Positions 15,289 through 41,814 of a DNA stretch of 64,000 bases are shown here, one piece after another. The position numbers and the translations under genes were made by a program. Origin of the DNA: Gemmatimonadota bacterium. Its GTDB lineage: Bacteria > Gemmatimonadota > Gemmatimonadetes > Palauibacterales > Palauibacteraceae. How positions within the stretch are numbered: the first letter of the stretch is position 1; each line of letters opens with the position of its first letter. The notes beneath the pieces are model-generated. The model was not told the origin of the DNA and did not search any database. It was given only the letters and a program-made list of their open reading frames with translations. The stretch lies in NCBI GenBank assembly GCA_035267645.1, contig DATFLN010000004.1, positions 24,534-88,533 on the forward strand. Reading direction: 5' to 3'.

Positions 15289-15292
15289 GGAA

Positions 15293-16345
15293 TCAGTCTC
15301 CGCCGGAGACGCCCTGCCCCCGGATGTGCCGGTCCCAGTGGCGGAGCCACTCCGGGGTGTGCTCCAGGACGTAGCCCCGGTCGATCTCCATGGGGCGGAG
15401 GTCGGGGAGCGCGTCCCGGAGCCACCCGGGGAGGGAGTCCTCGGGGAGGTCGGTCCGCACGGGGATCCGGAAGAAGCTCCGGGCCGCGTCCAGCACCTCG
15501 GGGCGGCTCCCCGCCCAGTCGACGAACGCGCGCGCCGCCTCCGGGTGGGGCGCTCCGGCCACGACCGCGATCGCGTCCACCACCACGGGAGTACCGCTCG
15601 CGGGAAGCACGTAGTCGATCGGGAGGGTCGTGGTGGCCCGCAGCGTCTCGACGTCGGGCATGTCCCACAGCGTGACCAGGCCCTCGCGGCGCGCGAGCTT
15701 CTGGTAGAGGAGCGTGGGGTTGAGGACGTACTCGCGCGTCTGGGCGTCCAGGCGGCGGAGCCAGCGGTAGCCCGCCTCCGGATCCCCGGTCCGGCGGTAC
15801 TCTCGCCACATGATGGCCCCGAAGATCGCGCGCATGGTCCCCGAGGCCAGCGGGTCCCGGATGAGGACCTCGTCCTTCCACCTGGGCTCCAGGACGTCGT
15901 CCCAGTCCTTCGGGGCCTCCTCCCGGGTCAGCGCGTCCGAGTTGTAGGCGATGACCTCGGGCGTGCGGTAGGTGCCGATCCAGCGCCCGGCCGAGTCCCG
16001 CGCCGAAGGCGGGACGGCGTCCTCCCACGAGGGATGGTCGACCTGGAGCAATCCTTCCCCGGCCGCCCGCGAGAACATCTCCGAGGGCGCTCCCCACCAC
16101 ACGTCGGCCTGGGGGTTGGCCTTCTCGGAGCGCACGCGGTCCAGGACCTCCTGGCTCCCCATGTCCATCCACTGGACGTCCACGTCCGGGTGGGCGGCCT
16201 CGTACGCCTCCTCGAAGTGGGAGAGGAGGTCCCGCCCGTGCGGGGAGTAGACGACGAGCGGGGTGCGCCCATCCCCGCCCCGGCAGGCGGCCAGGAGCCC
16301 GAGGACGCCCGGCAGGAGGAGCCGGACGGCCAGCGGCGCCCTCAA
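15293..16345 (-). CDS. Lipoprotein, family-1 extracellular solute-binding protein (Fe3+/polyamine/thiamine type)
   Basis: Frame of ORF 15293..16597. I place the start at TTG 16345, overlapping the upstream stop (TTGA 16342-16345). This gives (M)RAPLAVRLLLPGVLGLLAAC (lipobox) followed by PLVVYSPHGRDLL...ADVWWGAP. The start codon is uncertain. Confidence 0.75.
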   Translation of the reverse strand: MRAPLAVRLLLPGVLGLLAACRGGDGRTPLVVYSPHGRDLLSHFEEAYEAAHPDVDVQWMDMGSQEVLDRVRSEKANPQADVWWGAPSEMFSRAAGEGLLQVDHPSWEDAVPPSARDSAGRWIGTYRTPEVIAYNSDALTREEAPKDWDDVLEPRWKDEVLIRDPLASGTMRAIFGAIMWREYRRTGDPEAGYRWLRRLDAQTREYVLNPTLLYQKLARREGLVTLWDMPDVETLRATTTLPIDYVLPASGTPVVVDAIAVVAGAPHPEAARAFVDWAGSRPEVLDAARSFFRIPVRTDLPEDSLPGWLRDALPDLRPMEIDRGYVLEHTPEWLRHWDRHIRGQGVSGGD

Positions 16346-19200
16346 CTCCCGGCCCACCGGGCCCACGCCTCCGGGGTGAGGGAGAGGAGGTTGGCGAACA
16401 GGCGGTATGCGCCGGGCACCCCGGCCGGCAGCTCGCGGAAGAAGTCCAGCCCCGTGTACACGTAGATTCCCTCCCCGAGGGGCGCGACCAGGAGGCTCCC
16501 GAGCTTCGCACCCTCCCCCGGGTCGTGCATGGAGAGGAGCGGCACGAAGCGGTCGTCCCAGCTGTGGAGGAAATAGAGCCCGCGCTCCTGGATCCATCCC
16601 TCGAAGTCCCGGCCCCCGATCCGGTTCGGGCTCGCCAGCGGCGGCGCGTCGGGATGGAGGAGCTTCACCGGCGCCCGCTCGTCGGTCACCCGGTCGTGCG
16701 GGTGCGCCATGGTGGCCGGGTACGGGGGATAGCCCCCGTCCACGTACTCGTACTTGTTGTACTGGACGATCAGCGTGCCGCCCGCGCGCACCCAGTCCAG
16801 GAGCCGCTGGTTGGCGGCCTGCAGGTCCTTCCGGACCTCGTAGGCCCGGACGCCGAGCACGATGACGTCGAAGTCGTCGAAGCTCCCCGACCGCAGCCGG
16901 TCGGGCCCGATCATCGTGACGGGGAGGCCCAGCTGGCGGATGGCGTCGGGCACGTCGTCGCCCGAGCCCATCACGTAGCCGACCCGCCGCGTGCGGTCCA
17001 CCCGGACCGGGAAGCGCTCCACCCGGACCGAGGCGTCCGTGTACAGCGGCATCGGGTCGATGTGGGGATAGTCGATCATGGTGAGCTGGCGGGACCAGGT
17101 CCGCGTCCCGGAGCCCGCGCCGGTCGCGCGGGTCCCGGCGGAGCCGTCCGCCGCCCCGGAGCCCGTGGCTCCCGCCGCGCGGGCCACGCCCCTCAGGTGG
17201 TAGGTGCGGAACGCCGGGCCCGCCCCGCTCTCCCCGCTCCCGGCCGCGCCGTTCCGGAGCCGGAACTCGCGGCTCTCGGTCCCTCCCCGCTCGGCCAGCT
17301 CGACCCGGGCGTCGGGCGGCCGGGTGGCCCAGCCGTCCGGGACCTCCAGGTCGGCCACCGCGTGGACGGTGTCCGGAACCTGGCTCTTGAGGGTGACGGT
17401 CACGTCACGCTCCGCGGTGTCCCCCGAGGGCCACACGAGCACGCCGGGCTCGGCGGCCACCGACAAGCGGGGGACCACGTACACCGGCCTCCAGAACTCG
17501 CCCTTGGCCTTGTCGACCCCGCGGTAGCGCACGGGGCTCCCGGCCCGCACGGAGACCCCGGACGCGCCGTCTCCGACGGAGAGCTCCAGCGAGCCCGTGG
17601 CCACGGGCGGGTCCAGCGGCCGCGCGCGCACCGAGGGGTCGTCGGGCCACCGGTACAGGTCTCCCACCGTGTCCCGGCGGAGGAAGTACTCGACCGTGGG
17701 ATGCGCGTCTCCGGGCACCTCGAGCTCGAAGCTCCAGCGGGCCAGCCGGCCCGGGGGCACGGTCGTGGCGCCGGCCCCACCCTTCACCGGCGCTCCGGCC
17801 CGGTAGAACCCGGAGCGCTCCGAGGGGGTGAGCTCCACGCTGTCGGCCGGCAGGAGCCGGGCCGACCAGCCCTCCGGAAGATCGAGGCCCGGCCGTCCGG
17901 CCCGCACGGTGGACGCCCCGCCGTTCCAGACCTCCGCGTCGACGCGGACGGTCTCCCCCGGCACCCACAGGTCGTCGTGGGCCCGGAAGCGCCAGGTGAC
18001 GCCCGCCGCCGACAGGAGGGCCCGGTCGGCCAGGTCGCGCTGGCGCTCCAGCGCCGCCCTCGCGGAGGGCGCCGCGCCTCCGGTCCGCGCCAGCTCGGCC
18101 AGGTCGTCGATGGCGCGTACGGCGGCCCGGAGGGGTCCGCCCGCAGCTCCCGGATCGAGGACGCGGAGCGAGTCCCGGGCCTCGGCCACCGCCGCGACGT
18201 AGGCCGCGGCGCGCGAGCCGGCGCGCGCCCGGACGCCCTCGGGAAGCCCGTCGGCCAGACCCGCCAGGGTCGTGTCGATCCCCGCGAACAGGCCCGCGCC
18301 CGCGGGAGCGCCGGTGAGGTCCCGCAGGAGCATGAGCTGCGTGTAGCGCGGCCCCGGGGGACGCACGACCCCGAAGTCCTGCGAGCGGTGCTGGCTCCGG
18401 CTCAGCATGGCGAGCTGGAAGGGCGACATGCCGAGAACGGGATCGTACTCGCCCGTCTGCACCCGCAGGGTCGTGCTCTCGGGGGTGCGCCACGTGCGGC
18501 GGTAGAGCTTCTCCGCCCGCCACGGCCGGGCGCCCCAGGCCAGCTGCTCGGGGAAGCGCGAGCTGTCGGCCGCCGCGTCGAACGCCTCGCGGGCCAGGAT
18601 GCCGGCCACCTGGTGCTGGCCGTGTCCGTCGGCCGGCGTCCCGCTGAAGATCGAGACGATGACCTGGGGGCGGAACGTGCGGATGACCCACACCATGTCG
18701 CCCAGCAGCGTGTCTCGCGGCCAGTGGGAGAAGGACTCCTCGGCCGTCTTGGAGTAGCCGAAGTCGTAGGCGCGCGAGAAGTACTGCTCCGCCCCGTCGA
18801 TCCGGCGCGCCGCCAGGAGCTCTCCGGTCCGGATGAGGCCGAGCCCCTTCCCCAGCTCGGACCCGATCAGGTCCTGCCCACCCTCCCCGCGCGTGAGGGA
18901 GAGGTAGGCCGCCCGGGCGCCCAGGTGGCGGGCGAGCTCGGCCAGGAGCGCGCTGTCCTCGTCGTCCGGGTGGGCGCCGATCACGAGGACTCGCTTGATG
19001 GCGCCCAGCTGCCGGAGGAGGAGACCGGTCTCGACGGCCCCGCCCTCGACCGGGAGGCCCCGGTAGGGGGCCTCCTGCGCCGCCGCGGGCTCCGCGGCGA
19101 CCGCGAGGAGGGTCGTGAGGACCAGCGCGGCCAGGGCCGTGAGAGTCGGGAGTCCGGAGCGTGATCGGGAGGGGCCGGGACACATCGTGGTGGTCTGCAT
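16342..19200 (-). CDS. Secreted PIG-L/LmbE-family deacetylase with a large C-terminal extension, 952 aa
   Basis: Signal peptide LTALAALVLTTLLAVAAEPAAAQE. PIG-L motif VLVIGAHPDDEDSALLAELAR...LSLTRGEGGQD. The long C-terminal region ends in VGYVMGSGDDVPDAIRQLG...DVIVLGVRAY...GGTLIVQY. Confidence 0.8.
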   Translation of the reverse strand: MQTTTMCPGPSRSRSGLPTLTALAALVLTTLLAVAAEPAAAQEAPYRGLPVEGGAVETGLLLRQLGAIKRVLVIGAHPDDEDSALLAELARHLGARAAYLSLTRGEGGQDLIGSELGKGLGLIRTGELLAARRIDGAEQYFSRAYDFGYSKTAEESFSHWPRDTLLGDMVWVIRTFRPQVIVSIFSGTPADGHGQHQVAGILAREAFDAAADSSRFPEQLAWGARPWRAEKLYRRTWRTPESTTLRVQTGEYDPVLGMSPFQLAMLSRSQHRSQDFGVVRPPGPRYTQLMLLRDLTGAPAGAGLFAGIDTTLAGLADGLPEGVRARAGSRAAAYVAAVAEARDSLRVLDPGAAGGPLRAAVRAIDDLAELARTGGAAPSARAALERQRDLADRALLSAAGVTWRFRAHDDLWVPGETVRVDAEVWNGGASTVRAGRPGLDLPEGWSARLLPADSVELTPSERSGFYRAGAPVKGGAGATTVPPGRLARWSFELEVPGDAHPTVEYFLRRDTVGDLYRWPDDPSVRARPLDPPVATGSLELSVGDGASGVSVRAGSPVRYRGVDKAKGEFWRPVYVVPRLSVAAEPGVLVWPSGDTAERDVTVTLKSQVPDTVHAVADLEVPDGWATRPPDARVELAERGGTESREFRLRNGAAGSGESGAGPAFRTYHLRGVARAAGATGSGAADGSAGTRATGAGSGTRTWSRQLTMIDYPHIDPMPLYTDASVRVERFPVRVDRTRRVGYVMGSGDDVPDAIRQLGLPVTMIGPDRLRSGSFDDFDVIVLGVRAYEVRKDLQAANQRLLDWVRAGGTLIVQYNKYEYVDGGYPPYPATMAHPHDRVTDERAPVKLLHPDAPPLASPNRIGGRDFEGWIQERGLYFLHSWDDRFVPLLSMHDPGEGAKLGSLLVAPLGEGIYVYTGLDFFRELPAGVPGAYRLFANLLSLTPEAWARWAGS

Positions 19201-19322
19201 GGCCGCGAAGCTAGGCCCGACGTCCCGGCGGGGAAAGGGTCCCCGCCCGCGCGGCAGGGGGAACGGGGGCGGCGCCGCTCACGTTGGCAGTCGGGCCCGC
19301 TAGGCCCTAGCCTGCACACGGC

Positions 19323-20783
19323 GTGAGCGTGGGGCGGCCGCCACCCGAGGAAGACGATTCACATGACGCCACGGTCGGACTCAGCGAGCCGGGAGCCTTG
19401 GGAAGCGTGACCGCGTGGGCCCTGCTCCTCCTGTACGGGCTGGTCTTCTTCGTCCTCTCGCCGTCGGCCTCCGACGCCGGAGGCTTCTACGAGGGACGCT
19501 CTCGCTCGGGCAGCTCGCCGGGGACCCCGCTCCTGTTCGCCACCGTCTTCGTGTCGTGGATCTTCGCCAAGTCCGTGACGAACGCGGCCAACCTCACGGG
19601 GACCTACGGCCTGCCCGGCGGCGTGGCGTACGGCGCCTGGTGGCTCTCGATCCCGGTGGCGGGCGTGGTGATCGTCGCGCTCCGCCGGAGGTTCGGGGCC
19701 CGCTCGCTGCCGGGCTGGGTGCGCTCCCGGTACGGCCGCGCGGCGGCGCTGGCCTTCCTCGTGGCCGTCCTCATCCGGCTCTACAACGAGGTGTGGAGCA
19801 ACACGGCGGTGGTGGCGGCCTACTTCGGGCCGCGCGGATCGGGCGCCTTCCTGCTCGCGGCCGGCGCGTTCACGGCGCTGACGCTCCTCTACACGCTCAA
19901 GGGCGGCCTGCGCAGCTCGATCTTCACGGACGCCGTGCAGGCGGGCCTGTTCGGGGCCTTCGTGGTGCTCGTCGTCCTCCTGGCCTTCCCTCGCACGGGC
20001 GCCGGCCTGCGCCGGGTGGCCACGTCCGGCCACTGGACGCTGGCCGGCGGCGTGGACCTCCTCCTGGTCGGCCTCCTCCAGTCCTTCAGCTATCCGTTCC
20101 ACGACCCGGTCCTCACCGACCGGGGCTTCCTGTCCGGGCCCCGGGAGACGCTGCGGGCCTTCGGGCTGGCGGGGGCCCTCGGCTTCGCGGCCATCGTGCT
20201 CTTCGGCCTGGTCGGGATCCCCGCCTACCTCGGCGGCACGCCCTTCCACGACGATGCGCCCCGGGCGGTGGCCTCGGCGCTGGGCGCCGGAGCGCTCCTC
20301 ATGGTGAACGTCGTCATGCTCACCTCGGCCGGCTCCACCCTGGACTCGACGTTCTCCTCGATCGCGAAGGCCATCGACCGGGACGGGCCCGAGATCCTGC
20401 GCGGGCCGCGGCCGGCCGGCTCGCTGTCGGGCGGGCGCGCCGCCATGGTCGCGATCGCGGTGCTCGGGAACCTCCCCCTCCTGTTCGGGGCGAGGATCCT
20501 CCAGGCCACCACCGTGAGCGGCACGATGGTGATCGGCCTCGCCCCCATCTTCCTCCTCGGCCTCGTGCTCCGGGCGCCCCCCCTCTCCTTCCACCTGGCG
20601 TTCTGGGCCGGCGTGGCGATCGGGATCGCGCAGGCGGCCGGTCTCGTTCCGGCCGCCCTCCGCATCGGGAGCGGCCGCTACGCCGACCTCCTGGGCGCCA
20701 ACCTGTGGGGCCTGGTCCTGGTCACCGCCCTCTTCCTCCTGCCCGTCCTGGCTCACCCGAGACCTGCGAGGAGACCCCGATGA
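19323..20783 (+). CDS. Multi-pass permease, sodium:solute symporter (SSS)-like
   Basis: 486 aa and highly hydrophobic with about 12-13 predicted helices. SSS-like GGLRSSIFTDAVQ motif. Start uncertain: GTG 19323 or in-frame GTG 19407. The stop overlaps the next start (ATGA 20780-20783). Confidence 0.65.
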   Translation: MSVGRPPPEEDDSHDATVGLSEPGALGSVTAWALLLLYGLVFFVLSPSASDAGGFYEGRSRSGSSPGTPLLFATVFVSWIFAKSVTNAANLTGTYGLPGGVAYGAWWLSIPVAGVVIVALRRRFGARSLPGWVRSRYGRAAALAFLVAVLIRLYNEVWSNTAVVAAYFGPRGSGAFLLAAGAFTALTLLYTLKGGLRSSIFTDAVQAGLFGAFVVLVVLLAFPRTGAGLRRVATSGHWTLAGGVDLLLVGLLQSFSYPFHDPVLTDRGFLSGPRETLRAFGLAGALGFAAIVLFGLVGIPAYLGGTPFHDDAPRAVASALGAGALLMVNVVMLTSAGSTLDSTFSSIAKAIDRDGPEILRGPRPAGSLSGGRAAMVAIAVLGNLPLLFGARILQATTVSGTMVIGLAPIFLLGLVLRAPPLSFHLAFWAGVAIGIAQAAGLVPAALRIGSGRYADLLGANLWGLVLVTALFLLPVLAHPRPARRPR

Positions 20784-22192
20784 CCGATGCCGCGAATCGA
20801 GACGCCGAGACCGTCGACGCCCTGGTCATCGGCACGGGCCAGGCCGGGACCCCCCTGGCCGGAGCCCTGGCCGCCGACGGGCGCCGGACCGCGATCGTGG
20901 AGCGGGGGCGCGTCGGCGGGACCTGCGTGCTGCGCGGCTGCACGCCCACCAAGACCATGGTCGCGAGCGCACGGGTGGCCTACCTGGCCCGGCGTGCGTC
21001 CGACTACGGCGTCCGGACCGGGCCCGTGTCGGTGGACCTGGAGGCGGTGCGGGCGCGGAAGCGGGACATCGTCGACGCCTGGAGCGAGAGCGAGCGGAAG
21101 CATCTGGAGGAGACGGAGGGCCTGGAGCTGGTGTTCGGGGAAGCCCGCTTCGTGGCGGAACGGACCGTCGAGGTCGCGCTGCGGGAGGGCGGGACCCGGC
21201 GGCTCTCGGCGCCGTGGGTGTTCCTCGACACCGGCTCGCGACCGGCCGTCCCCCCGCTCGACGGGCTGGAGGACGTCCCCTACCTGGACTCCACCTCGAT
21301 CATGGAGCTCGGGGAGGTCCCCGACCACCTCGTGGTCCTGGGCGGGGGCCCGCTCGGGCTCGAGTTCGCCCAAATGTTCCGGCGCTTCGGGGCCGAGGTG
21401 ACCATCGTGGAGCGGGGGAGCCGCCTGGCCGCAGGGGAGGACGAGGACGTCTCGGACGCCCTGCGGGAGATCCTGGAGGAGGACGGCCTCCGGGTGCTCA
21501 CGGACGCGGATGCGAGCGCGGTCCGGGGCGGCGACGGCTCCGGGCCCATCCGGCTCTCCGTGCGCGGCCCGGACGGACCCGTGGAGCTCGCCGGGAGCCA
21601 CCTCCTGGTCGCCGCCGGTCGCGCGCCCAACACGGACCGGCTGGACCTCGCGGCCACCGGCCTGGCCACCGACGAGCGTGGCCACGTCCAGGTGAACGGG
21701 CGCCTCGAGACCACGGTGGAGGGGATCTGGGCCCTGGGCGACATCACCGGACATCCGGCGTTCACCCACACCTCGTACGACGACTACCGGATCGTGAAGG
21801 CCAACCTCCTGGACGGTGGTGACCGCTCCACGGAGGACCGTATCCTCACCTACACCGTGTTCACCGATCCCCAGCTCGGACGTGTCGGGTCCACCGAGCG
21901 GGACGCGCGGAACGAGTTTCGCGAAGTCCGCGTTGCGAAGCTCCCGATGAGCCGGGTGGCCCGCGCGATCGAGACGGACGAGACCCGCGGCTTCATGAAG
22001 GCCGTCGTGGACGGCGGCAGCGGCCGGATCCTCGGCGCGGCGGTGCTCGGGATCGACGGAGGCGAGGTGGCGGCGATGCTGAAGCTGGCGATGATGGGCG
22101 GCCTGCGGGCGGCGGACCTGCATCACGCGGTCCTGGCCCACCCCACGCTGGCCGAATCGCTCAACAACCTGTTCGAGGAGGCCCTGACGTGA
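20780..22192 (+). CDS. Class-I pyridine nucleotide-disulfide oxidoreductase, RclA-like (not MerA)
   Basis: Frame of ORF 19415..22192, starting at ATG 20780 (MTDAANRDAETVDALVIGTGQAG). Redox CxxxxC in GGTCVLRGCTPTK. FTHTSYDDYRIVKANLLDGGDRSTEDRILTYTVFTDPQLGRVG resembles E. coli RclA FTYISLDDYRIVRDELLGEGKRSTDDRKNVPYSVFMTPPLSRVG from memory. C-terminal HPTLAE; no NmerA domain and no C-terminal Cys pair. Confidence 0.8.
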   Translation: MTDAANRDAETVDALVIGTGQAGTPLAGALAADGRRTAIVERGRVGGTCVLRGCTPTKTMVASARVAYLARRASDYGVRTGPVSVDLEAVRARKRDIVDAWSESERKHLEETEGLELVFGEARFVAERTVEVALREGGTRRLSAPWVFLDTGSRPAVPPLDGLEDVPYLDSTSIMELGEVPDHLVVLGGGPLGLEFAQMFRRFGAEVTIVERGSRLAAGEDEDVSDALREILEEDGLRVLTDADASAVRGGDGSGPIRLSVRGPDGPVELAGSHLLVAAGRAPNTDRLDLAATGLATDERGHVQVNGRLETTVEGIWALGDITGHPAFTHTSYDDYRIVKANLLDGGDRSTEDRILTYTVFTDPQLGRVGSTERDARNEFREVRVAKLPMSRVARAIETDETRGFMKAVVDGGSGRILGAAVLGIDGGEVAAMLKLAMMGGLRAADLHHAVLAHPTLAESLNNLFEEALT

Positions 22193-23136
22193 GCGAGCCG
22201 GACGGAAGGACGACGCGGTGGAGCGGAGCGCGGATCGGCCGGTGGCCGTTCCTGGCCGCGGCTCTCGTGGTGGGAGCGGTGACGGCCGCGGCCTGCTCGG
22301 GAGGCGGAGGCGGGAGCGGCGGCGGAGCCTTCACGATCGGGGCCATCCCGGACCAGGACCCCGAGAAGCTCCAGCGGCTGTTCGGGAAGGTGGCCGACTA
22401 CCTGCACGGGAAGCTGGACGTGCCCGTCCAGTACAAGCCGGTCACCGACTACGCGGCCGCCGTGACGGCCTTCCGGGTCGGCGACCTGGACATGGTGTGG
22501 TTCGGCGGGCTGACGGGCGTGCAGGCCCGCCTGCAGGTCCCCGGGGCGCACGCCCTGGCGCAGCGCGGGATCGACGAGGGCTTCCACAGCGTCTTCCTGG
22601 CCAACACCTCGACCGACCTCCAGCCCATCGACAGCCTCCCGGGGCTCGCGGAGCTGAAGGGACACACCTTCACGTTCGGGAGCCAGATCTCGACCTCCGG
22701 TCGCCTCATGCCCCAGTACTTCCTGGGCGAGGCCGGCGTGGGCGTGGATGACTTCGAGGGGGAGCCCGGCTTCTCGGGCTCGCACGACAAGACCATCAAG
22801 CTCGTCGAGTCGGGGACCTACGACGCGGGCGTCGCGAACGAGCAGGTGTGGCGGAGCCGGGTGGACTCCGGGCGGGTCGACACGACCCGGGTGCGCGTGA
22901 TCTGGCGGACCCCGCCCTACCACGACTACCACTGGGTCATCCGGCCCGGCCTGGACGACAGGTTCGGGAAGGGCTTCACGGACCGCGTGCGGCAGGCCCT
23001 GCTGGGGCTGAGCCCCGACGACCCGGCCCAGAAGGAGATCCTGGACCTGTTCGGGGCGCGGCGCTTCGTGCCCACGGCCGACTCGAGCTACGACCAGATC
23101 GAGGCCGTCGGAAGGGACATCGGCAAGATCCAGTGA
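22189..23136 (+). CDS. PhnD-family ABC substrate-binding lipoprotein (phosphonate/phosphite-type fold; substrate unknown)
   Basis: 315 aa. Lipobox AAACSGGGGGSGGG. PhnD-like motifs FTIGAIPDQDPEKL, DMVWFGGLTGV, FTFGSQISTSGRLMP and YHDYHWVIRP. The GTG start overlaps the upstream stop (GTGA 22189-22192). Confidence 0.85.
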   Translation: MSEPDGRTTRWSGARIGRWPFLAAALVVGAVTAAACSGGGGGSGGGAFTIGAIPDQDPEKLQRLFGKVADYLHGKLDVPVQYKPVTDYAAAVTAFRVGDLDMVWFGGLTGVQARLQVPGAHALAQRGIDEGFHSVFLANTSTDLQPIDSLPGLAELKGHTFTFGSQISTSGRLMPQYFLGEAGVGVDDFEGEPGFSGSHDKTIKLVESGTYDAGVANEQVWRSRVDSGRVDTTRVRVIWRTPPYHDYHWVIRPGLDDRFGKGFTDRVRQALLGLSPDDPAQKEILDLFGARRFVPTADSSYDQIEAVGRDIGKIQ

Positions 23137-23882
23137 CGCCGCCCGTCTTCGAGCTCCGGGACGTCCGCCGCAGCTTCGGCTCGACCGAGGCCGTGTCCGG
23201 CCTGGACCTCGTGGTCCGTCCGGGCGAGAGGGTGGCGCTGGCGGGACCGAGCGGCGCCGGCAAGACCACCCTCATCGGCCTCCTGAACGGCACGCTCCTC
23301 CCCAGCACGGGCTCCGTCCGCATCTTCGGCCGGGACACCCGGCAGGTGGGGGCACGCGAGCTCCGCCGCCTCCAGCGGAGGATCGGGACGGTCTACCAGC
23401 AGTTCCACCTGGTCGACGAGCTCCGGGTGATCCACAACGTGAACGCGGGGAGGCTGGGCCGCTGGTCCCTGGCCCGCGCGGCGCTGTCGCTCGTCTCGCC
23501 CCGCGAGGCCGAGGACACCCGGCGCCTCCTGGGACGGGTGGGGATGGCGGGGAAGCTGTACGAGCGCACGGGGGACCTGTCGGGGGGCGAACAGCAGCGG
23601 GTCGCGCTGAGCCGGGTCCTGGCCCAGGATCCCGACGTCATCCTCGCGGACGAGCCGATCGCGAGCCTGGACCGGGAGAACAGCCGGGAGGTCATGGACC
23701 TCCTGCGGGACCTGGTCGAGGAGAGGGGACGCACGGCCGTCATCAGCCTCCACGACGTCTCCTTCGCGCTGAGCCACTGCGAGCGGGTGGTGGGCGTCCG
23801 CTCGGGTCGGGTCCTGTTCGACGAGCCCGCCGCCTCGGTCACCTCCGAGATGACGGACGAGCTCTACCGCATCGAACGGTGA
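23133..23882 (+). CDS. PhnC-like ABC ATP-binding protein
   Basis: Frame of ORF 22848..23882. GTG 23133 overlaps the PhnD-like stop. Walker A GPSGAGKTT, signature LSGGEQQRVALSRVL, Walker B VILADEP, H-loop ISLHD. Confidence 0.9.
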   Translation: MTPPVFELRDVRRSFGSTEAVSGLDLVVRPGERVALAGPSGAGKTTLIGLLNGTLLPSTGSVRIFGRDTRQVGARELRRLQRRIGTVYQQFHLVDELRVIHNVNAGRLGRWSLARAALSLVSPREAEDTRRLLGRVGMAGKLYERTGDLSGGEQQRVALSRVLAQDPDVILADEPIASLDRENSREVMDLLRDLVEERGRTAVISLHDVSFALSHCERVVGVRSGRVLFDEPAASVTSEMTDELYRIER

Positions 23883-25636
23883 GCGGAGCCGGGGAGGCGG
23901 CGGCAGCGCCCGGGGAGGCGGCCCCGCCGCGCCCGCTCCGCCCGAGCGCCCACACCTTCTGGGGCGTGGCCGCCCTCGTGGCGGTGGGCGTCGCCGCGGC
24001 GGTGGCCGTCGCGCCGGGCGGCCGCCTGGTGAACGTCCGGGGATGGTCGGAGCTCGCCCGCTTCTTCGCCGCCGCCCTCCACCCGGAGCTGGGGCGGGGC
24101 TTCGTCCCCCTCACGCTCCACGCCTCGCTGGTCACGCTCGCCTTCGCGGTGTGCGGCACCATCGTGAGCCTCGTCCTCGGCCTCACGGGCGGGATCCTGG
24201 CGTCGGAGACCTTCTGGAGGATGGCGGTCTCGGGCCGGACGGACGCGGGAGGGATCCGGAGCCGGGGGCCCTGGGTCGTCGTCCGGGCCTGCCTCGCGGT
24301 CCCGAGGGGCATCCACGAGATCGTGTGGGGGCTCCTGTTCGTGAACCTGGTGGGCCTGGATCCGGTGGTGGGGGTGGCCGCGATCGCCATCCCCTACGGC
24401 GCGATGACCGCCAAGGTCTACTCCGAGATCCTGGACGAGGCGGACCACCGGGCCATGCGGGCCCTCCGCTCAGCGGGGGCCGGGCGCGCCGCCGCCTTCC
24501 TGTACGGGCTGTTCCCGAGGGCCGCGCGGGACCTGGCCTCCTACGCCTTCTACCGGTTCGAGTGCTCGATCCGCTCGGCGGCCGTGCTCGGGATCATCGG
24601 GGCCGGGGGGCTCGGCTACCAGATCTTCCTGAGCCTCCAGTCCCTCCGCTACGAGCAGATGTGGACCTTCCTGTACGCGCTCATCGTCGTGGCGGGGCTC
24701 AGTGACCTGTGGAGCGGGCTGTTCCGGAGCCACCTGGGGGCCGCGACCCGGATCGACCTGGGCCTGGACGACCGGGACGCCCGGCCCGGGGCGCCGCGGA
24801 GGCCTCCCGCCCGGGCCGACCGCGTGGTCCGCGCCTCGTTCGTCCTGTTCGCGCTCCTGGCGGTCCTCTCCTTCTGGCACCTCGGGCCCCACTTCGGGCG
24901 CCTGTTCAGCGCCGGGACGGGCCATCAGCTCGCGGGCCTGGCCGGGAGGGCGTGGCCGCCGGCCCTGGGGGGCGTGAGCCTCGGGCACATGTTCGTCCTG
25001 GCCGGGAAGACGCTGGCCCTATCCGTCCTGGCCATCGCGGTGGCCGGCGCGGGCGGGGTGCTCCTGGCCTTCCCGGCGGCGTACAATTTCCTCCTCCCCG
25101 GCGGCATCCTCCTCGGCGAGAACGGGGGCGGCCCGGTGCGGCGCGCGCTCGGCGCGGCAGGCTTCGGGATCGCGCGGCTCCTCCTCCTGGTCCTCCGGGC
25201 CATCCCCGCCCCGATCTCCGCGCTCCTCCTCCTCTACGTGCTCTTCCCGGGGATCGTGCCCGGCGCGCTCGCACTCGGGCTCTACACCCTGGGCGTCCTC
25301 GGGCGGCTCATGGCGGAGGTGGTCGAGGGGCTGGAAAGGAGGCCGCTGCGGGCCCTCCGGGCCCAGGGCGCGTCGGGGCTCCAGGTCTTCCTGTACGGGG
25401 TCCTCCCCGCCACGCTCCGGCGCTTCGTCTCCTATACTTTCTACCGGTGGGAGGTCGCCATCGCCGGGACGGTCATGGTGGGCCTGGTGGGGGCCGGCGG
25501 GCTGGGCGTCCTCCTCACCGAGCAGCTCAGCAGCTTTGCCTACGACGCGGCGCTCACCACCCTGCTCTTCTACGTCGGGCTCCTGTTCGTGGGCGACATG
25601 GTGAGCGCCACCGCCCGCCGACAGCTCAGGGAATAG
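23879..25636 (+). CDS. Fused double PhnE-like ABC permease
   Basis: 585 aa. The GTG start overlaps the PhnC-like stop (GTGA 23879-23882). Two repeated permease halves each carry a PhnE-type loop (YGAMTAKVYSEILDEADHRAMRALRSAGAGRAAAF and LGRLMAEVVEGLERRPLRALRAQGASGLQVF). Confidence 0.85.
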   Translation: MSGAGEAAAAPGEAAPPRPLRPSAHTFWGVAALVAVGVAAAVAVAPGGRLVNVRGWSELARFFAAALHPELGRGFVPLTLHASLVTLAFAVCGTIVSLVLGLTGGILASETFWRMAVSGRTDAGGIRSRGPWVVVRACLAVPRGIHEIVWGLLFVNLVGLDPVVGVAAIAIPYGAMTAKVYSEILDEADHRAMRALRSAGAGRAAAFLYGLFPRAARDLASYAFYRFECSIRSAAVLGIIGAGGLGYQIFLSLQSLRYEQMWTFLYALIVVAGLSDLWSGLFRSHLGAATRIDLGLDDRDARPGAPRRPPARADRVVRASFVLFALLAVLSFWHLGPHFGRLFSAGTGHQLAGLAGRAWPPALGGVSLGHMFVLAGKTLALSVLAIAVAGAGGVLLAFPAAYNFLLPGGILLGENGGGPVRRALGAAGFGIARLLLLVLRAIPAPISALLLLYVLFPGIVPGALALGLYTLGVLGRLMAEVVEGLERRPLRALRAQGASGLQVFLYGVLPATLRRFVSYTFYRWEVAIAGTVMVGLVGAGGLGVLLTEQLSSFAYDAALTTLLFYVGLLFVGDMVSATARRQLRE

Positions 25637-25645
25637 GAGGGCTCC

Positions 25646-26965
25646 ATGGCGCAGATGAAGCAGACGCTGGTCGACGCGCCCCGCCTGGTCGAGTGGGTGC
25701 GCGACGCGCGCGAGCGGACCCGAACGCTGGTCTCCGACCTCGACGACGAGCAGCTCCTCGGGCCCCGCCTCTCCATCGTGAACCCGCTCCTGTGGGAGAT
25801 CGGGCACCTGGCCTGGTTCCAGGAGAAGTTCGCCCTCAGGGGGGCGCTGGGCCGGGACCCGATCCGCGCGGACGCGGACGAGCTGTGGGACTCGATGGCC
25901 GTGGCGCACGACACGCGCTGGGACCTCCCCCTCCCCTCCCGGGAGGAGACGCTGGCCTACATGCGGGCCGTCGAGGACGCCGTGGTCGAGGCGCTCGAGG
26001 CCTCGCCCGACGAGGACCTCCTCTACCACGCCCTGTACACGGTCTACCACGAGGACATGCACGCCGAGGCGTTCACCTGCACCCGGCAGACGTGCGGATG
26101 GCCGGCCCCGCCCCTCGGCGCCTCAGGCGGGGAGGAGGTCGCCGGCGGCCCGCCGCCGGAGGGCGACGCGGAGGTGCCGGGGACGGCGGCGTTCGCGCTC
26201 GGCGCCCCCCGGGACGCGCCCTTCGCCTTCGACAACGAGCAATGGGCGCACCCGGTCCCGCTCGAGCCCTTCCGCATCGCGAGGCGGCCGGTCACGCAGG
26301 GCGAGTTCGCCGCGTTCGTGGACGACGGCGGCTACGAGCGGGACGAGCTGTGGAGCGAGGCGGGGCTGGCGTGGCGCGAGGAGACGGGGGCCGACGCGCC
26401 GCCGTACTGGAGCCGGGAGGGGGGCGGCTGGACCCGCCGGACGTTCGACCGGCGGGTGCCGCTCGAGCCGGAGCTCCCGATGGTCCACGCGAGCTGGTTC
26501 GAGGCCGAGGCCTGGTGCCGGTGGGCCGGCCGCAGGCTCCCCACCGAGGCCGAGTGGGAGGCGGCCGCGGGCTCTCCGGCGGCGGACGGGGAGCTGGACG
26601 GGCGGGCCGAGGCCAAGCTCCGCCATCCGTGGGGCGAGGAGCAGGACGCGGCCGGGCGGGCCAACCTGGACGGCCTGGCCGGGGGGTGCGTCCCGGCGGG
26701 CCGGCTGCCGGCGGGACGGAGCCCGCACGGGTGCGTGGACATGCTCGGGCAGGTGTGGGAGTGGACCTCCAGCGACTTCGGCCCCTATCCCGACTTCTCG
26801 CCCGACCCGTACGAGGCCTACTCGGAGCCCTGGTTCGGGGGCCGGAAGGTGCTGCGCGGAGGGAGCTGGGCCACGCGCTCCCGGCTCGTGTGGAGCACCT
26901 ACCGGAACTACTTCACGCCCGACCGGCGGGACGTGTTCGCGGGCTTCAGGACGTGCGCGATCTAG
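25646..26965 (+). CDS. EgtB/SenA-family non-haem-iron enzyme (DinB_2 + FGE-sulfatase domains); candidate selenoneine/ergothioneine-type C-chalcogen bond synthase
   Basis: 439 aa with AGGAGG Shine-Dalgarno 8 nt upstream. N-terminal EIGHLAWFQEKF and YHEDMHAEAF (His triad). C-terminal FRIARRPVTQGEFAAFV, GQVWEWTSSDF and VLRGGSWATRS. Confidence 0.8.
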   Translation: MAQMKQTLVDAPRLVEWVRDARERTRTLVSDLDDEQLLGPRLSIVNPLLWEIGHLAWFQEKFALRGALGRDPIRADADELWDSMAVAHDTRWDLPLPSREETLAYMRAVEDAVVEALEASPDEDLLYHALYTVYHEDMHAEAFTCTRQTCGWPAPPLGASGGEEVAGGPPPEGDAEVPGTAAFALGAPRDAPFAFDNEQWAHPVPLEPFRIARRPVTQGEFAAFVDDGGYERDELWSEAGLAWREETGADAPPYWSREGGGWTRRTFDRRVPLEPELPMVHASWFEAEAWCRWAGRRLPTEAEWEAAAGSPAADGELDGRAEAKLRHPWGEEQDAAGRANLDGLAGGCVPAGRLPAGRSPHGCVDMLGQVWEWTSSDFGPYPDFSPDPYEAYSEPWFGGRKVLRGGSWATRSRLVWSTYRNYFTPDRRDVFAGFRTCAI

Positions 26966-27017
26966 GCCGGGCGGGGCGGGACTGGGGCCGGCGCGCGCCC
27001 CGGGACGTGGGAGCGGC

Positions 27018-28097
27018 GTGAGGATCCTCCTGGTCACCCCATCGGCCGACGCCGAGGCGCCCGGGAACCGGGTCACGGCCGACCGCTGGGCCGGCTTCCT
27101 CCGGGAGCTGGGCCACGAGGCGGAGGTCGCCGGGGCGTATCCGGGCGCGGAGGGCGGCGCGCGCCCCGACGTCCTGGTCGCCCTCCACGCCCGGAAGAGC
27201 CTCCCGTCGGTGGTGCGCTACGACGAGGAGCGGGGGTCCGGACGGGCCCCCCGGGGCGGACTCGTGGTGGCCCTCACCGGCACCGACCTGTACCGTGACC
27301 TGGCGGACTCGGACGCCGCGGCCTGGGACGCGGTCCGCCGCGCCGACCGGCTGGTGGTCCTGCAGGAGCGCGGGCCGGACGAGATGCCCCCCGAGCTCCG
27401 CGAGAGGACGCGGGTCATCTACCAGTCCGTCCCGGAGCTGTGGGACGGTGGCGCGGCGGCCGGGGACGTCCCGGGCGCGGGGGGCGAGGACGGGGAGGCC
27501 GCGGACGGGCCTGCGGCGCCCGACGCCGACGCGGCGGGGAGCGCCGGGGAGGAGGCGCTGCACGTCTGCATGCTGGCCCACCTGCGGCCGGTGAAGGACC
27601 CCCTCCTCGCGGCCGAGGCGGCCGCGCTCCTCCCGGAGGGGAGCCGCGTCCGGATCGACCACTACGGCTCGGCCTACTCGGAGGAGGTGGCCCGGCGGGC
27701 CCGGGAGGCCTCGCCCCCGGGCTCCCGGTACAGGTGGCACGGGGAGATCGGCCGCCCCGAGGCCCTCCGCCGCCTGGCCGCGAGCGACCTCCTCCTCCTC
27801 ACCTCGAAGCTCGAGGGAGCCGGGAACGCCGCCTCCGAGGCGATCACGGCCGGGGTCCCCGTGCTGTGCACGGACGTCTCGGGGCTGGTCGGCATGGTCG
27901 GCCGGGGGTACCCCGGCCTGTTCGGGGTCGGCGACGCACGAGCGCTGGCCCGGCTCCTGCGGCGAGCGGAGACCGACCCCGGGTTCGTGCGACGCCTCCG
28001 GCGACACGTCGAGCAGCGCAGGCCGCTCCTCGACCCCGCCCGGGAGCGCGACGCCTGGCGCGACCTCCTCCAGCGACTCGATCTCTCCGAGGTCTGA
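27018..28097 (+). CDS. GT-B/GT4 glycosyltransferase, SenB-like (candidate selenosugar synthase)
   Basis: 359 aa, GTG start. N-terminus MRILLVTPSADAEAPGNRVTADRWAGFLRELGHE. E-x7-E motif in SKLEGAGNAASEAITAGVPV. Assignment to the SenB family rests on my memory of that family's N-terminal signature plus adjacency to the EgtB-like gene. Confidence 0.65.
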   Translation: MRILLVTPSADAEAPGNRVTADRWAGFLRELGHEAEVAGAYPGAEGGARPDVLVALHARKSLPSVVRYDEERGSGRAPRGGLVVALTGTDLYRDLADSDAAAWDAVRRADRLVVLQERGPDEMPPELRERTRVIYQSVPELWDGGAAAGDVPGAGGEDGEAADGPAAPDADAAGSAGEEALHVCMLAHLRPVKDPLLAAEAAALLPEGSRVRIDHYGSAYSEEVARRAREASPPGSRYRWHGEIGRPEALRRLAASDLLLLTSKLEGAGNAASEAITAGVPVLCTDVSGLVGMVGRGYPGLFGVGDARALARLLRRAETDPGFVRRLRRHVEQRRPLLDPARERDAWRDLLQRLDLSEV

Positions 28098-28101
28098 CGA
28101 T

Positions 28102-29475
28102 ATGGACGCCCTCACGGTCGACCGGCTGCAGTTCGCCTTCACCGTCTCCTTCCACTACCTGTTCCCGCAGCTCACCATGGGGCTCGCCCTCCTCATCCTC
28201 CTCCTCGAGACGCAGGCCCTGCGGACGGGCGAGGAGCGCTGGGAGCGCGCCGCGCGGTTCTGGGCCAAGATCTTCGGGATCAACTTCGCCGTGGGCGTGG
28301 TCACCGGGATCCCCATGGAGTTCCAGTTCGGCACGAACTGGGCGGTGTTCTCCAGGGCCGCGGGCGGCGTCATCGGCCAGACGCTGGCCATGGAGGGCGT
28401 GTTCGCGTTCTTCCTCGAGTCGTCCTTCCTGGGGCTCTTCCTGTTCGGGCGGGAGAAGCTGGGGAAGAAGGGGCACTGGTTCACCGCGCTGGCCATGTTC
28501 CTGGGCTCGTGGCTCTCCGGCTACTTCATCGTGGCCACGGACGCCTGGATGCAGCACCCGGTGGGGCACGCCGTGGGACCGGGCGGCGAGATCGCCCTGC
28601 AGAGCTTCCGGGCGCTCCTGACCAACCCGTGGGCCATCTGGCAGTACCTGCACACGATGGTGGGGGCGGTCATCACCGGCTGCTTCGCCCTGGCGGCCGT
28701 GGGCGCCTGGTACGTCCTCGACGACCGCGAGGTGGCGTACGGCAAGATGTTCGTGCGCGTGGGCGTCCTGGTCGGCGTCGTGGCCTCGGTGGTCCAGCTC
28801 TTCCCGCTCGGGGACATCCAGGGGCGCATGGTGGCCGACCACCAGCCCCCCACCCTCGCCGCCATGGAGGGGCTGTTCCGGACCGAGCAGGGCGCGCCGC
28901 TGGCCATCGTGGGGCAGCCCGACGTGGCCCGCGGCGAGCTGGACAACCAGCTCGTCGTCCCGCGGGCGCTCAGCTTCCTCACCTACCGGCGCTGGGAGGC
29001 CGAGGTGAAGGGCCTGGACGCCTTCCCCGAGCAGGACTGGCCCGACAACATCCCGCTCCTCTACTACAGCTACCACATCATGGTCGGGCTCGGGACGATC
29101 TTCATCGCGATCCTGGCCTGGTCCGCCTTCAGGTTGTGGAGGGGGACCCTGTTCGAATCGCGCGCCACGCTGTGGCTCCTGATGCTGGCCCTTCCCTTCC
29201 CCTACATCGCCAACACGGCGGGCTGGCTCACCGCCGAGCTCGGCCGGCAGCCCTGGGTGATCTGGGGGCTGATGCGGACGTCCCAGGGCGCCTCGCCCAC
29301 CGTCTCCTCCGGGAACGGGACGTTCACGCTGGTGGGCTTCATGGGGCTCTACTTCGTCCTCGGCGTCCTCTTCCTCTTCCTCGTGGGGCGGGAGATCGCC
29401 CACGGGCCGGGAGGCGGAGACGCGACTCCGAGCGGATCCGGCGAGCCCGCCGCCGAACGGGTCCGGGGGGGCTGA
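28102..29475 (+). CDS. cydA: Cytochrome bd ubiquinol oxidase subunit I
   Basis: 457 aa. Motifs LQFAFTVSFHYLFPQLTMG, GIPMEFQFGTNW, EGVFAFFLESSF and a Q-loop region. Starts 4 nt after the GT stop. Confidence 0.95.
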   Translation: MDALTVDRLQFAFTVSFHYLFPQLTMGLALLILLLETQALRTGEERWERAARFWAKIFGINFAVGVVTGIPMEFQFGTNWAVFSRAAGGVIGQTLAMEGVFAFFLESSFLGLFLFGREKLGKKGHWFTALAMFLGSWLSGYFIVATDAWMQHPVGHAVGPGGEIALQSFRALLTNPWAIWQYLHTMVGAVITGCFALAAVGAWYVLDDREVAYGKMFVRVGVLVGVVASVVQLFPLGDIQGRMVADHQPPTLAAMEGLFRTEQGAPLAIVGQPDVARGELDNQLVVPRALSFLTYRRWEAEVKGLDAFPEQDWPDNIPLLYYSYHIMVGLGTIFIAILAWSAFRLWRGTLFESRATLWLLMLALPFPYIANTAGWLTAELGRQPWVIWGLMRTSQGASPTVSSGNGTFTLVGFMGLYFVLGVLFLFLVGREIAHGPGGGDATPSGSGEPAAERVRGG

Positions 29476-29476
29476 C

Positions 29477-30514
29477 ATGGAGACGATCTGGTTCTGGTTC
29501 GTGGCGTTCCTCCTCACCATGTACGTCCTCCTGGACGGCTTCGACCTGGGCGCCGGCGCCCTCCACCTCGTGGTGGCCCGCACCGACGAGGAGCGGCGGA
29601 CCGTCCTGCGCTCGATCGGGCCGGTGTGGGACGGGAACGAGGTGTGGCTGATCGCCGGCGGCGGGACGCTGTACTTCGCCTTCCCGGCCCTGTACGCCTC
29701 GAGCTTCAGCGGCTTCTACCTGCCGCTCATGCTCGTGCTGTGGCTCCTGGTCCTGCGCGGGATCTCGATCGAGTTCCGCAGCCACCTGGAGAACCGGGTG
29801 TGGGCGCCTTTCTGGGACGTGGTGTTCGCGGGCGCGAGCCTGCTCCTGGCCCTGTTCCTGGGCGCGGCGCTGGGGAACGTCGTGCGCGGGGTCCCGCTCG
29901 GGGAGGCGGGCTGGTTCTTCGTCCCCCTGTGGACGGACTTCCTGGTCGGTCCCGATCCGGGGGTGCTGGACTTCTACACCCTCTCGGTGGGTCTCACCGC
30001 CCTGGCCGCCCTGGCCCTGCACGGCGCGCTGTGGCTCTCCCACAAGACCGAGGGCGACGTGCAGGCCCGCGCCCGCCGCGCGGCGGGCCGCCTGTGGTGG
30101 GCCGTGGTAGGGGGCACCCTCCTCATTACGGCGCTGACCTGGTGGGTCCAGCCGCTCGTGCCGCGGCACCTGGGGGAGCGGCCGTGGGCGTGGGTCTTCC
30201 CCGCCCTGGCGCTGGCCGGCCTGGCCGCGATCCGCCGGGCGCTCGCGGCGCGGAAGGACCTGCCGGGCTTCCTGGGCTCGTGCGCCTTCCTGGCCGGCAT
30301 GCTCGCGAGCGCGGCCGTCAGCCTGTATCCGTACGTGCTGCCCTCGGTGGGACCCGGTCCGGGCCTGACCGTGCACACCGCCGCGGCCGCGCGCAGCGGC
30401 CTGGCGATCGGCCTGGCCTGGTGGATCCCCGGCATGGCGCTGGCCCTGGCCTACGTGGTCTTCCTGTACCGGAGGTTCCGCGGCAAGGTGTCGCTGGAGG
30501 GCGAGGGGTACTAG
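29477..30514 (+). CDS. cydB: Cytochrome bd ubiquinol oxidase subunit II
   Basis: 345 aa. Motif WFWFVAFLLTMYVLLDGFDLGAGAL...GPVWDGNEVWLI. Starts 1 nt after the cydA stop. Confidence 0.95.
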   Translation: METIWFWFVAFLLTMYVLLDGFDLGAGALHLVVARTDEERRTVLRSIGPVWDGNEVWLIAGGGTLYFAFPALYASSFSGFYLPLMLVLWLLVLRGISIEFRSHLENRVWAPFWDVVFAGASLLLALFLGAALGNVVRGVPLGEAGWFFVPLWTDFLVGPDPGVLDFYTLSVGLTALAALALHGALWLSHKTEGDVQARARRAAGRLWWAVVGGTLLITALTWWVQPLVPRHLGERPWAWVFPALALAGLAAIRRALAARKDLPGFLGSCAFLAGMLASAAVSLYPYVLPSVGPGPGLTVHTAAAARSGLAIGLAWWIPGMALALAYVVFLYRRFRGKVSLEGEGY

Positions 30515-30604
30515 GAGAGGCCGCCGGCGGGTCGTCGCGCGGCCCGCGTGCGAGCGATCCGGCGTTCGGCCCGCGCGAGACGACCAGGCGGAGGCGAGCT
30601 CTCG

Positions 30605-39289: not shown

Positions 39290-40459
39290 GTGCACGTCAT
39301 AGATCGAGAGGGGCTCGACGCCCTGATCCGCCATCTGTCCGCGGAGGGCCGTACGGTGCTCGGCCCGACCGTGGCCGGCGGGGCCATCGCTCTCGGCGAG
39401 GTCGGGTCCGCGCGCGACCTCCCCGAGGGCTGGACCGACGAGCAGGAGGGCGGAGCCTACCGGCTGCGGCGGCGGGAGGACCGCGCCCTGTTCGGCTACG
39501 CGGTCGGGCCCCGCTCGTGGAAGGCGTGGCTCCACCCCGCCGAGCTGCGGCTGTGGCGCGCCCGACGGACGGACCGGGGGTTCGAGCTGGGGCCCGACGA
39601 CGCTCCCGTCCCCCGCTACGCCTTCCTGGGCGTCCGCCCGTGCGAGCTCCACGCGATCCGGATCCAGGAGCGCGTGCTGGCCGGGGGCGTCCACGCCGAC
39701 CCCGGCTACCGCGCCCGGCGCGAGGCGGCGTTCCTCGTGGCCGTGAACTGCGGGGAGCCCGGCGGGACGTGCTTCTGCGCCTCCATGGGAACCGGGCCGG
39801 CCGCCGACGACGGCTACGACCTCGTCCTCACCGAGATCCTGGATCCTCGAGACCCCGGGGGTCCGACCCGTTTCACCGTGCTGGCCGGGTCCGCCCGCGG
39901 CGAGGAGGCGCTCGGAGGCGTCCCGGCCCGGGAGGCCTCCCCCGGCGAGGCGCGGGCCGCGCGGTCCGTGGTCGAGGAGGCCGCGAGCCGCATGGGCCGC
40001 TCGCTCGACGCCGCGGGGCTCCCCGAGCTCCTGGCCGACCGCCTCGAGCACCCGCGCTGGGAGGAGACGGCGGAGCGCTGCCTGGCGTGCGGGAACTGCA
40101 CGCTGGTGTGTCCCACCTGCTTCTGCACCAGCGTCGACGACACCACCGAGCTCACCGGGGACGCGGCCGAGCGCTGGCGCCGCTGGGACTCGTGCTTCGC
40201 CACCGACTTCTCCCACATCCACGGCGGGAGCGTCCGGGGCTCGCGTGCCTCGCGCTACCGCCAGTGGCTGACCCACAAGCTGGGCACCTGGCACGAGCAG
40301 TTCGGCACCTCCGGGTGCGTGGGCTGCGGCCGGTGCATCACCTGGTGTCCCGTCGGCATCGACCTCACCGAGGAGGTCGCGGCTCTGCGGAGGTCTCCGG
40401 GCCCCGCCGCCGGCCCCGACGGGGCCGCCCGCCCCCCCACCTCCGGAGGTGATCCATGA
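39290..40459 (+). CDS. 4Fe-4S dicluster subunit, AsrA/HyhB-like (group 3b [NiFe]-hydrogenase beta-type subunit)
   Basis: 389 aa, GTG start. [35 protein letters not shown]. The stop overlaps the next start (ATGA 40456-40459). Confidence 0.8.
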
Positions 40460-41813: not shown

Positions 41814-41814
41814 G

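Follow-up and report, generated by a model that had tools for sequence, protein, structure and literature searches.

A gene for a putative selenate transporter has been reported near many of 827 sen clusters, an observation that its authors cited in favour of a selenium pathway (Kayrouz et al. 2022, bioRxiv 10.1101/2022.04.13.486033). The genes co-encoded with thio/seleno-imidazole synthases (NHISS) have since been tabulated, and the neighbourhood table that lists SenB (8.1%) and SenC (6.3%) also lists ABC_peri_selen (3.1%), PhnE (3.1%) and Lpd/PRK06370 (4.0%) (JACS 2026, PMC13674229, Table 1). Here we analyse a locus of this kind in a stretch of 64,000 nucleotides from a Gemmatimonadota bacterium (assembly GCA_035267645.1, contig DATFLN010000004.1, positions 24,534 to 88,533; hereafter the window), in which a PhnD/PhnC/PhnE-type ATP-binding cassette (ABC) importer at 22189-25636 is encoded together with a disulfide reductase and with senA and senB, the genes for selenoneine, a selenium-containing antioxidant. 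Because ABC_peri_selen, PhnE and Lpd/PRK06370 all stand in the published table, the transporter and the reductase are both recurrent, published neighbours of sen genes; the link to a selenometabolite pathway, which the initial annotation of the window had suggested might be unusually direct here, is not unusual and had already been described in these two reports.

The relatives of this importer for which biochemistry is available are the PhnD1 proteins of marine picocyanobacteria, for which dissociation constants of 0.05-4 µM for phosphite, 7-180 µM for phosphate and 17-109 µM for methylphosphonate have been determined, with no binding of hypophosphite (PMC10284923). The orthologues prefer phosphite although their hosts are unable to use it, and phnD1 is mostly not induced by phosphorus starvation (PMC10284923). 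Crystal structures exist for PhnD1 of Synechococcus MITS9220 with phosphate (7S6G/7ZCK) and of Prochlorococcus MIT9301 with phosphite and methylphosphonate (5LQ5/5LQ8). PhnD1-C1-E1 resembles the importer of the window in its ligand contacts, its fused permease and a host without detected phosphite and phosphonate utilisation genes. It differs in that PhnD1 has been published as a phosphite/phosphate binder and read as part of a constitutive phosphate transporter, and in that its genes adjoin tesA, not selenium genes.

Results

The three genes at 22189-25636 are confidently predicted, from profile matches and conserved motifs, to encode a binding-protein-dependent ABC importer of the TIGR04553/PhnD1 family:

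22189..23136, + strand, lipoprotein substrate-binding protein (SBP) of the TIGR04553/PhnD1 family (TIGR04553, 361.8 bits; PF12974)
23133..23882, + strand, PhnC-like ABC ATPase (TIGR02315, 233.6 bits, cut-off 266)
23879..25636, + strand, double PhnE-type permease with both transmembrane domains fused into a single chain (TIGR01097, 310.7 bits, match split into two stretches)

The binding protein, ATPase and fused double permease are thus those that the initial annotation had recognised. The SBP has a lipoprotein-type signal that ends at Cys36 (...AVTAAAC36), the ATPase retains intact Walker A (GPSGAGKT), LSGG, Walker B (VILADEP) and H-loop motifs, and the permease has one EAA-like coupling motif in each half (residues 183 and 480). 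The trio recurs in most of 80 related loci, where the PhnC-like ATPase gene likewise adjoins the SBP gene in most cases and the match to the fused permease extends over ~1,700 nt.

The match of the SBP to TIGR04553 (ABC_peri_selen), named "putative selenate ABC transporter substrate-binding protein", covers positions 2-265 of the 266 in the profile (E 2e-108) and lies well above the cut-off of 250 bits, whereas the PhnD equivalog TIGR03431 gives 124.9 bits and fails its cut-off of 261.1. The PhnD-related "putative selenate" profile subfamily to which the initial annotation had referred therefore exists, and the SBP is classified as a bona fide member of it and not as an alkylphosphonate PhnD; it is the sole PhnD-superfamily SBP detectable in the genome. 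The closest proteins of known structure by phmmer are 7S6G/7ZCK (E 2.3e-110) and 5LQ5/5LQ8 (E 2e-83), with 62-68% identity to 7S6G (Foldseek and phmmer alignment counts) and 48-49% to 5LQ5/5LQ8 (Foldseek). An AlphaFold2 model of the SBP (pLDDT 85.9) also has 7S6G as its best Foldseek match (E 1.8e-43). Since both crystallised PhnD1 proteins themselves exceed the TIGR04553 cut-off (336.7 bits for the 7S6G type and 300 for the 5LQ5 type), the marine PhnD1 proteins and the "putative selenate" proteins form, by profile membership, a single family.

Other described systems are more distant. The phosphite- and hypophosphite-binding proteins PtxB and HtxB (5O2J, 5LV1, 5JVB, 5ME4) have the same fold and a small capped pocket for a reduced phosphorus oxyanion, but they share 20-30% identity with the SBP (97.7 bits against PtxB and ~29-30% identity to 5O2J), and their ptxD or htxA oxidation genes were not seen in the window. 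Escherichia coli PhnD-PhnC-PhnE belongs to the same superfamily and has the same three-component layout; the pocket of its PhnD, however, is larger and places Asp/Glu acceptors for 2-aminoethylphosphonate at the site of the capping Tyr of the TIGR04553 family, and the window differs further in its fused permease and in having no C-P lyase (PhnJ search of the 70%-complete assembly). AioX and ArrX provide the precedent within this fold for non-phosphorus oxyanions of groups 15 and 16, including pyramidal XO3 ions, but they are ~20% identical to the SBP and serve arsenic redox systems as sensors or partners; they are not ABC importers of selenium clusters.

The transporter trio is coupled, in the manner of co-translated genes, to the flavoprotein disulfide reductase gene upstream and to senA-senB downstream, and the plus-strand genes of the window between 19323 and 30514 have overlapping or near-abutting junctions throughout. 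Besides the transporter genes, this operon comprises:

19323..20783, + strand, SSS-like permease, first gene of the operon (486 aa, multi-pass membrane protein; weak matches to PF00474, 26 bits, and TIGR00813, 29 bits)
20780..22192, + strand, class-I flavoprotein disulfide reductase of the PRK06370 type with a CxxxxC motif (NF004992, 539 bits, cut-off 629; Pyr_redox_2 and dimerisation domains)
25646..26965, + strand, senA, selenoneine synthase (NF041186, 492.2 bits, cut-off 420; the EgtB model scores lower, 330)
27018..28097, + strand, senB, selenosugar synthase (TIGR04348, 320.3 bits, cut-off 300)
28102..30514, + strand, cydA-cydB, cytochrome bd oxidase (cydB 199.9 bits, cut-off 117; cydA-like 269 bits)

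The stop codon of the SSS-like gene overlaps the ATG of the reductase gene as ATGA; the reductase and SBP genes (the latter with a GTG start), the SBP and ATPase genes, and the ATPase and permease genes each overlap as GTGA. The start of senA follows the permease stop by 9 nt and is preceded by a GGAGG ribosome-binding site. These junctions, both towards the reductase and towards the senA-like gene, are as the initial annotation had described them. No terminator-like site was found between 19323 and the end of senB at 28097; the only three in the scan fall within cydA and cydB, a number no higher than chance, and the promoter scan yielded no sigma-70-like site. The cydA-cydB pair begins 4 nt past the senB stop and is the probable tail of the operon. 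The 52-nt spacer between senA and senB (26966-27017) exceeds every other untranslated gap between the first gene and the end of senB, a longer one separating cydB from the next gene; the spacer is very rich in G+C (the window as a whole has ~73%) and contains a palindromic stretch, GGGGCCGGCGCGCGCCCCGG. No Rfam family matched the window at gathering thresholds.

The locus shares with the systems described by Kayrouz and colleagues a TIGR04553 score above the cut-off, PhnC and fused-PhnE partners and linkage to selenium genes. It departs from them in several respects: selD is outside the operon; the gene order is transporter-senA-senB, whereas in another Gemmatimonadota locus (L009) the transporter comes after senA-senB; and the transporter genes are preceded by those of an SSS-like permease and a free-standing reductase of the PRK06370 type, with cydAB following. 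The senA-senB-senC (selD) co-localisation that defines the Kayrouz sen cluster is accordingly not seen, senA and senB being in the window and selD on another contig. The assembly (2.6 Mb, 70% complete) contains a sole selD (contig C83:10409-11464, locus L005; 373 bits), amid housekeeping genes (pyrimidine synthesis, scpA/B, upp-like) and not sen genes. Because this gene has an in-frame TGA (UGA) in the conserved GAG-U-ACK motif, its product is predicted to be a selenocysteine-containing selenoprotein. With an EgtD homologue on contig C44 as a potential source of hercynine, the selenoneine pathway is predicted to be complete in trans.

The distribution of the family also links it to selenium. 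Among 341 Cyanobacteriota genomes, sampled evenly, TIGR04553 exceeded its cut-off in 40 and selD was found in 76; selD was present in 40/40 of the TIGR04553-positive genomes against 36/301 of the negative ones (Fisher p = 3e-31, with shared ancestry ignored). Part of the positives have small genomes, the others larger ones, and the cyanobacterial family loci span many families. Among the 80 loci closest to that of the window, selD lies divergently upstream of the transporter in seven and senA-senB adjoins it in one, so that, with the window included, selD or senAB adjoins the transporter in 9/81. These selenium-adjacent loci belong to three distinct clades in the protein tree (Moorena, Anaerolineae/Thermoflexales and Gemmatimonadota). 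Both the confinement of the cyanobacterial family to selD-positive genomes and this repeated, independent joining of selD or sen operons argue against a rival explanation, in which the window encodes a medium-affinity phosphate/phosphite importer, as has been proposed for picocyanobacterial PhnD1CE, and its position in a sen operon is irrelevant to its substrate; the translational coupling to senA argues likewise. Two other phyla add little. Within Gemmatimonadota (301 genomes), TIGR04553 occurs in 2 genomes and SenB in 3, and the query genome is the only overlap, which is too few to inform; in Chloroflexota, TIGR04553 was recorded in 2/281 genomes and selD in 72%.

Two further observations were made on cyanobacterial SelD. 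In Moorena producens (L038, 7186-9666), a TIGR03169 pyridine-nucleotide-disulfide oxidoreductase is fused to SelD and divergently adjoins the TIGR04553 transporter, an arrangement that echoes the free-standing, transporter-coupled reductase of the window. Cyanobacterial SelD is encoded by an open frame of ~690-960 aa, and in one genome (G574) the selD and TIGR04553 genes are 1.3 kb apart.

The ligand pocket provides evidence for the phosphate/phosphite importer. In PhnD1, the contacts are made by Tyr44, Ser124-Thr125-Ser126, His156 and Asp203, with Tyr204 capping the fourth position; the pocket thus holds a small XO3-R oxyanion by three trigonally arranged oxygens and offers the fourth substituent one hydrogen bond. 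Eleven pocket positions were compared (Y44, S124-T125-S126, H156, D203, Y204, D11, T65, N174 and S123 in PhnD1 numbering), and the SBP is identical at 10 of them (D55, Y88, T109, S168-T169-S170, H199, N217, D246 and Y247). Because it has every contact residue of the crystallised PhnD1, it almost certainly binds phosphite and phosphate in vitro, by analogy with these relatives. The published affinities and crystal structures of family members with the same contacts, and the phosphate that co-purified with the protein of 7S6G, thus all favour a phosphorus cargo.

The one difference is the water-holding Ser123 of PhnD1, which is Ile167 in the SBP (window positions 22687-22689). In 7S6G this serine holds a buried water beside the ligand. 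Of the 84 family members in the alignment, 78 have Ser in this column and four have N, A or T, while Ile occurs only in three Gemmatimonadota sen-linked proteins (those of the window, L009 and L089); the change could tune ligand preference. Across the 84 aligned members, which include nine encoded beside selD or senAB, the ligand-contact columns are essentially invariant. A separate selenium-specific clade or a distinct selenium pocket was therefore rejected, the pocket columns being invariant and the selenium-adjacent loci scattered over three clades. Selenoneine, hercynine or other large ligands are also unlikely as cargo, since the capped pocket of PhnD1 shuts out even 2-aminoethylphosphonate.

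The same pocket bears on the reading that gave the family its database name, namely that the importer takes up selenate, which would be reduced inside the cell. Selenate is the main selenium species of oxic waters, the name of TIGR04553 was taken up by Kayrouz et al. (2022), and ArrX, of the same superfamily, can hold sulfate and arsenate. However, the pocket keeps an Asp (D246), a hydrogen-bond acceptor, and provides a single hydrogen bond, from Tyr247, for a fourth oxygen, and an anion as fully deprotonated as sulfate would be disfavoured by the logic established for PstS and the sulfate-binding protein. Anomalous scattering excluded sulfate from the site of 7S6G, shifts in melting temperature were seen only with phosphorus-containing cocktails in a screen that included sulfate salts, and no selenate reductase was noticed in scans of the window. 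The conserved Asp and the lack of response to sulfate make selenate the least likely selenium species, and we regard a selenate importer as highly improbable.

Another small XO3-type oxyanion (sulfite, arsenite or tellurite), or a role in detoxification or sensing, was also considered. Sulfite is the closest isostere of phosphite, AioX of the superfamily binds arsenite, and the RclA- and MerA-like scores of the co-encoded reductase place it in a flavoprotein family related to stress, although it is not a true MerA, the MerA model giving 344 bits, under its cut-off of 454. Yet no sulfite or arsenic genes are linked to the locus, the specific and repeated linkage is to selD and sen genes, and an importer would be an odd device for detoxification. 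These roles are improbable in our estimation.

The phosphorus context of the genome further bears on the phosphate/phosphite importer. As the initial annotation had stated, phosphonate and phosphite catabolic genes are missing from the window: an NCBIfam scan of all its credible open reading frames found no C-P lyase, phnX/phnW, ptxD or htx gene. The scans of the window gave no ptxD-like match, no genome-wide search for ptxD having been made, and PhnJ (PF06007) had no match in the whole, 70%-complete assembly. A separate PstS phosphate system is encoded on contig C79, so phosphate uptake does not depend on the TIGR04553 pump. Another ABC importer of the window (12383-16366, - strand) has 2-aminoethylphosphonate transporter models as its best NCBIfam matches, far below their cut-offs (SBP 81 against 393), and thus does not constitute a phosphonate context.

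Control by phosphate starvation through a Pho box, which the initial annotation had named as a sign against a selenium role, was not apparent near the operon, a weak negative. No match to the E. coli consensus with up to 3 mismatches was found near the operon, which is a weak test as the Gemmatimonadota Pho box is not defined. On contig C79, ~110 nt upstream of pstS (34699-35622, - strand), three GT(G/T)AC units with ~11-nt spacing, TTCGTGACgcgatcGTTACACgggCGTGAC, sit between a histidine-kinase gene and pstS and represent a candidate Pho box of the lineage. The pattern GTKAC-N6-GTKAC, derived from this one promoter, does not occur in 19,000-30,600, including the 122-nt control region. The genome's own PstS system, the lack of such a pstS-type repeat near the operon, and the behaviour of PhnD1 in hosts that cannot grow on phosphite and mostly do not induce phnD1 on phosphorus starvation all speak against a phosphate/phosphite importer. 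Weighing these points against the pocket evidence and against the many family loci, including one in Gemmatimonadota (G040), that have the transporter and no nearby selenium gene or no senB, we judge it rather unlikely but a serious rival.

The arrangement of the operon varies between lineages. A metagenomic relative (L089/L090), whose reductase is 86% identical, has the same layout of PIG-L operon, SSS-like gene, reductase, SBP and ATPase, whereas reductase homologues at 71-72% identity lie in unrelated contexts and L009 has no reductase. The coupling of the reductase is therefore lineage-specific, so that context alone does not make it a dedicated selenium enzyme family, and the window operon is a genus-level variant of a known theme. 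In a genome of the same class (G039; L087, 6251-14278), the gene of a true mercuric reductase immediately precedes a senA-senB-MFS-egtD-egtB operon. The enzyme reaches 585 bits against TIGR02053 (cut-off 454) and 549.6 bits against NF010311, the model of full-length MerA (cut-off 600), with a match from residue 9 that suggests an N-terminal metal-binding domain. Its position beside sen genes is intriguing given the mercury detoxification proposed for selenoneine, and may be coincidence.

Elsewhere in the window, a four-subunit sulfhydrogenase-like [NiFe] hydrogenase cluster (39290-44712; matches to sulfhydrogenase beta, gamma, delta and alpha models) is followed by a maturation protease fused to a segment resembling the LigD 3'-phosphoesterase. 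An NhaA Na+/H+ antiporter gene (61667-63508, - strand) encodes a ~150-aa N-terminal extension with similarity to Rcas_1661-type thioredoxin-like (seleno)lipoproteins (101 bits, under the cut-off of 190).

Discussion

Based on the operon structure, the family assignment and the distribution of the family, we propose, at about even odds, that the importer supplies selenium to selenoneine synthesis, most likely in the form of selenite. Selenite is a trigonal-pyramidal XO3 anion like phosphite, with a lone pair in place of the P-H bond and a slightly larger oxygen triangle, and it is partly protonated at neutral pH; selenate, by comparison, is sulfate-like, being a tetrahedral and fully ionised dianion. 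Selenite would therefore be the better fit, owing to its phosphite-like shape and to the proton that it could donate to the conserved Asp246. A selenite cargo would also account for the preference of PhnD1 for phosphite in organisms unable to use it, and for phnD1 being mostly not induced by phosphorus starvation. According to reviews, selenite is taken up through phosphate transporters in plants, yeast and bacteria.

In the scheme that we envisage, the membrane-anchored lipoprotein SBP would capture selenite or biselenite in preference to selenate and deliver it to a single-chain double PhnE permease driven by a dimer of the PhnC-like ATPase. Inside the cell, Se(IV) would be reduced to selenide, possibly with the help of the co-encoded reductase acting on thiol-selenium adducts, and the selenide would then be activated by the selenocysteine-containing SelD. 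SenB would convert the resulting selenophosphate to a selenosugar, and SenA would make selenoneine from this selenosugar and hercynine, presumably produced by the EgtD homologue.

A number of points weigh against this proposal. The preference for selenite over selenate comes from chemical analogy, not from data, and the sole biochemistry of the family, obtained with proteins that have the same pocket, concerns phosphite, phosphate and methylphosphonate. We found no published demonstration of any TIGR04553/PhnD1 member binding or transporting a selenium species: the stem "selen" does not occur in the available main text and supplementary material of PMC10284923 or in the available text of the PtxB paper (PMC5700983), and no paper in the searchable literature mentions both PhnD and selenite. 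The initial annotation had held that an SBP that binds alkylphosphonates or phosphite with high affinity and no selenium oxyanion would refute a selenium importer; by proxy, the first half of that statement is borne out by the PhnD1 relatives, which bind phosphite in the sub-µM to µM range and phosphate in the µM range. On the genomic side, 72/81 family loci are without a selenium gene in the surrounding 10 kb, roughly 17 of the 40 cyanobacterial positives are small genomes of picocyanobacterial size, and the association with selD ignores shared ancestry. In Chloroflexota, 19/22 carriers are selD-positive, which is uninformative because selD is already present in 72% of genomes. The link is also loose within the phylum itself, where one genome (G040) encodes the transporter but no senB and two others (G039 and G142) encode senAB but no transporter. 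The candidate selenium importer of the initial annotation thus stands as far as its TIGR04553 membership and its place in a senA-senB operon are concerned, and is tempered by the phosphite and phosphate binding of its relatives and by a link to selenium genes that is not new.

The locus is one more example of an importer whose connection with selenium has been predicted by databases and noted in the literature. What it adds is a layout in which the reductase has a gene of its own that is coupled translationally, together with a Ser-to-Ile replacement next to the ligand that is specific to the lineage. Its family has so far been treated in two literatures that are not joined in any searchable paper, the selenium field speaking of a "putative selenate transporter" and the marine phosphorus field of PhnD1; it is the latter that has the crystal structures, the purified proteins and an unexplained preference for phosphite. 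According to reviews published in 2022 and in May 2026 (PMC9312934, PMC13188914), a selenium transport system that is both specific and of high affinity has yet to be identified in prokaryotes, and the TIGR04553 family is the obvious candidate for this missing transporter. We therefore put forward, as possible rather than probable, that the whole TIGR04553/PhnD1CE family, including the transporter that is conserved throughout Prochlorococcus and marine Synechococcus and that has a paradoxical preference for phosphite, is the missing dedicated high-affinity selenite importer of bacteria. If this is true, the binding of phosphite and phosphate by PhnD1 would reflect mimicry by look-alike XO3 oxyanions, and the window would hold a variant operon that combines uptake, a free-standing thiol/selenium reductase and the synthesis of selenoneine in a single transcription unit.

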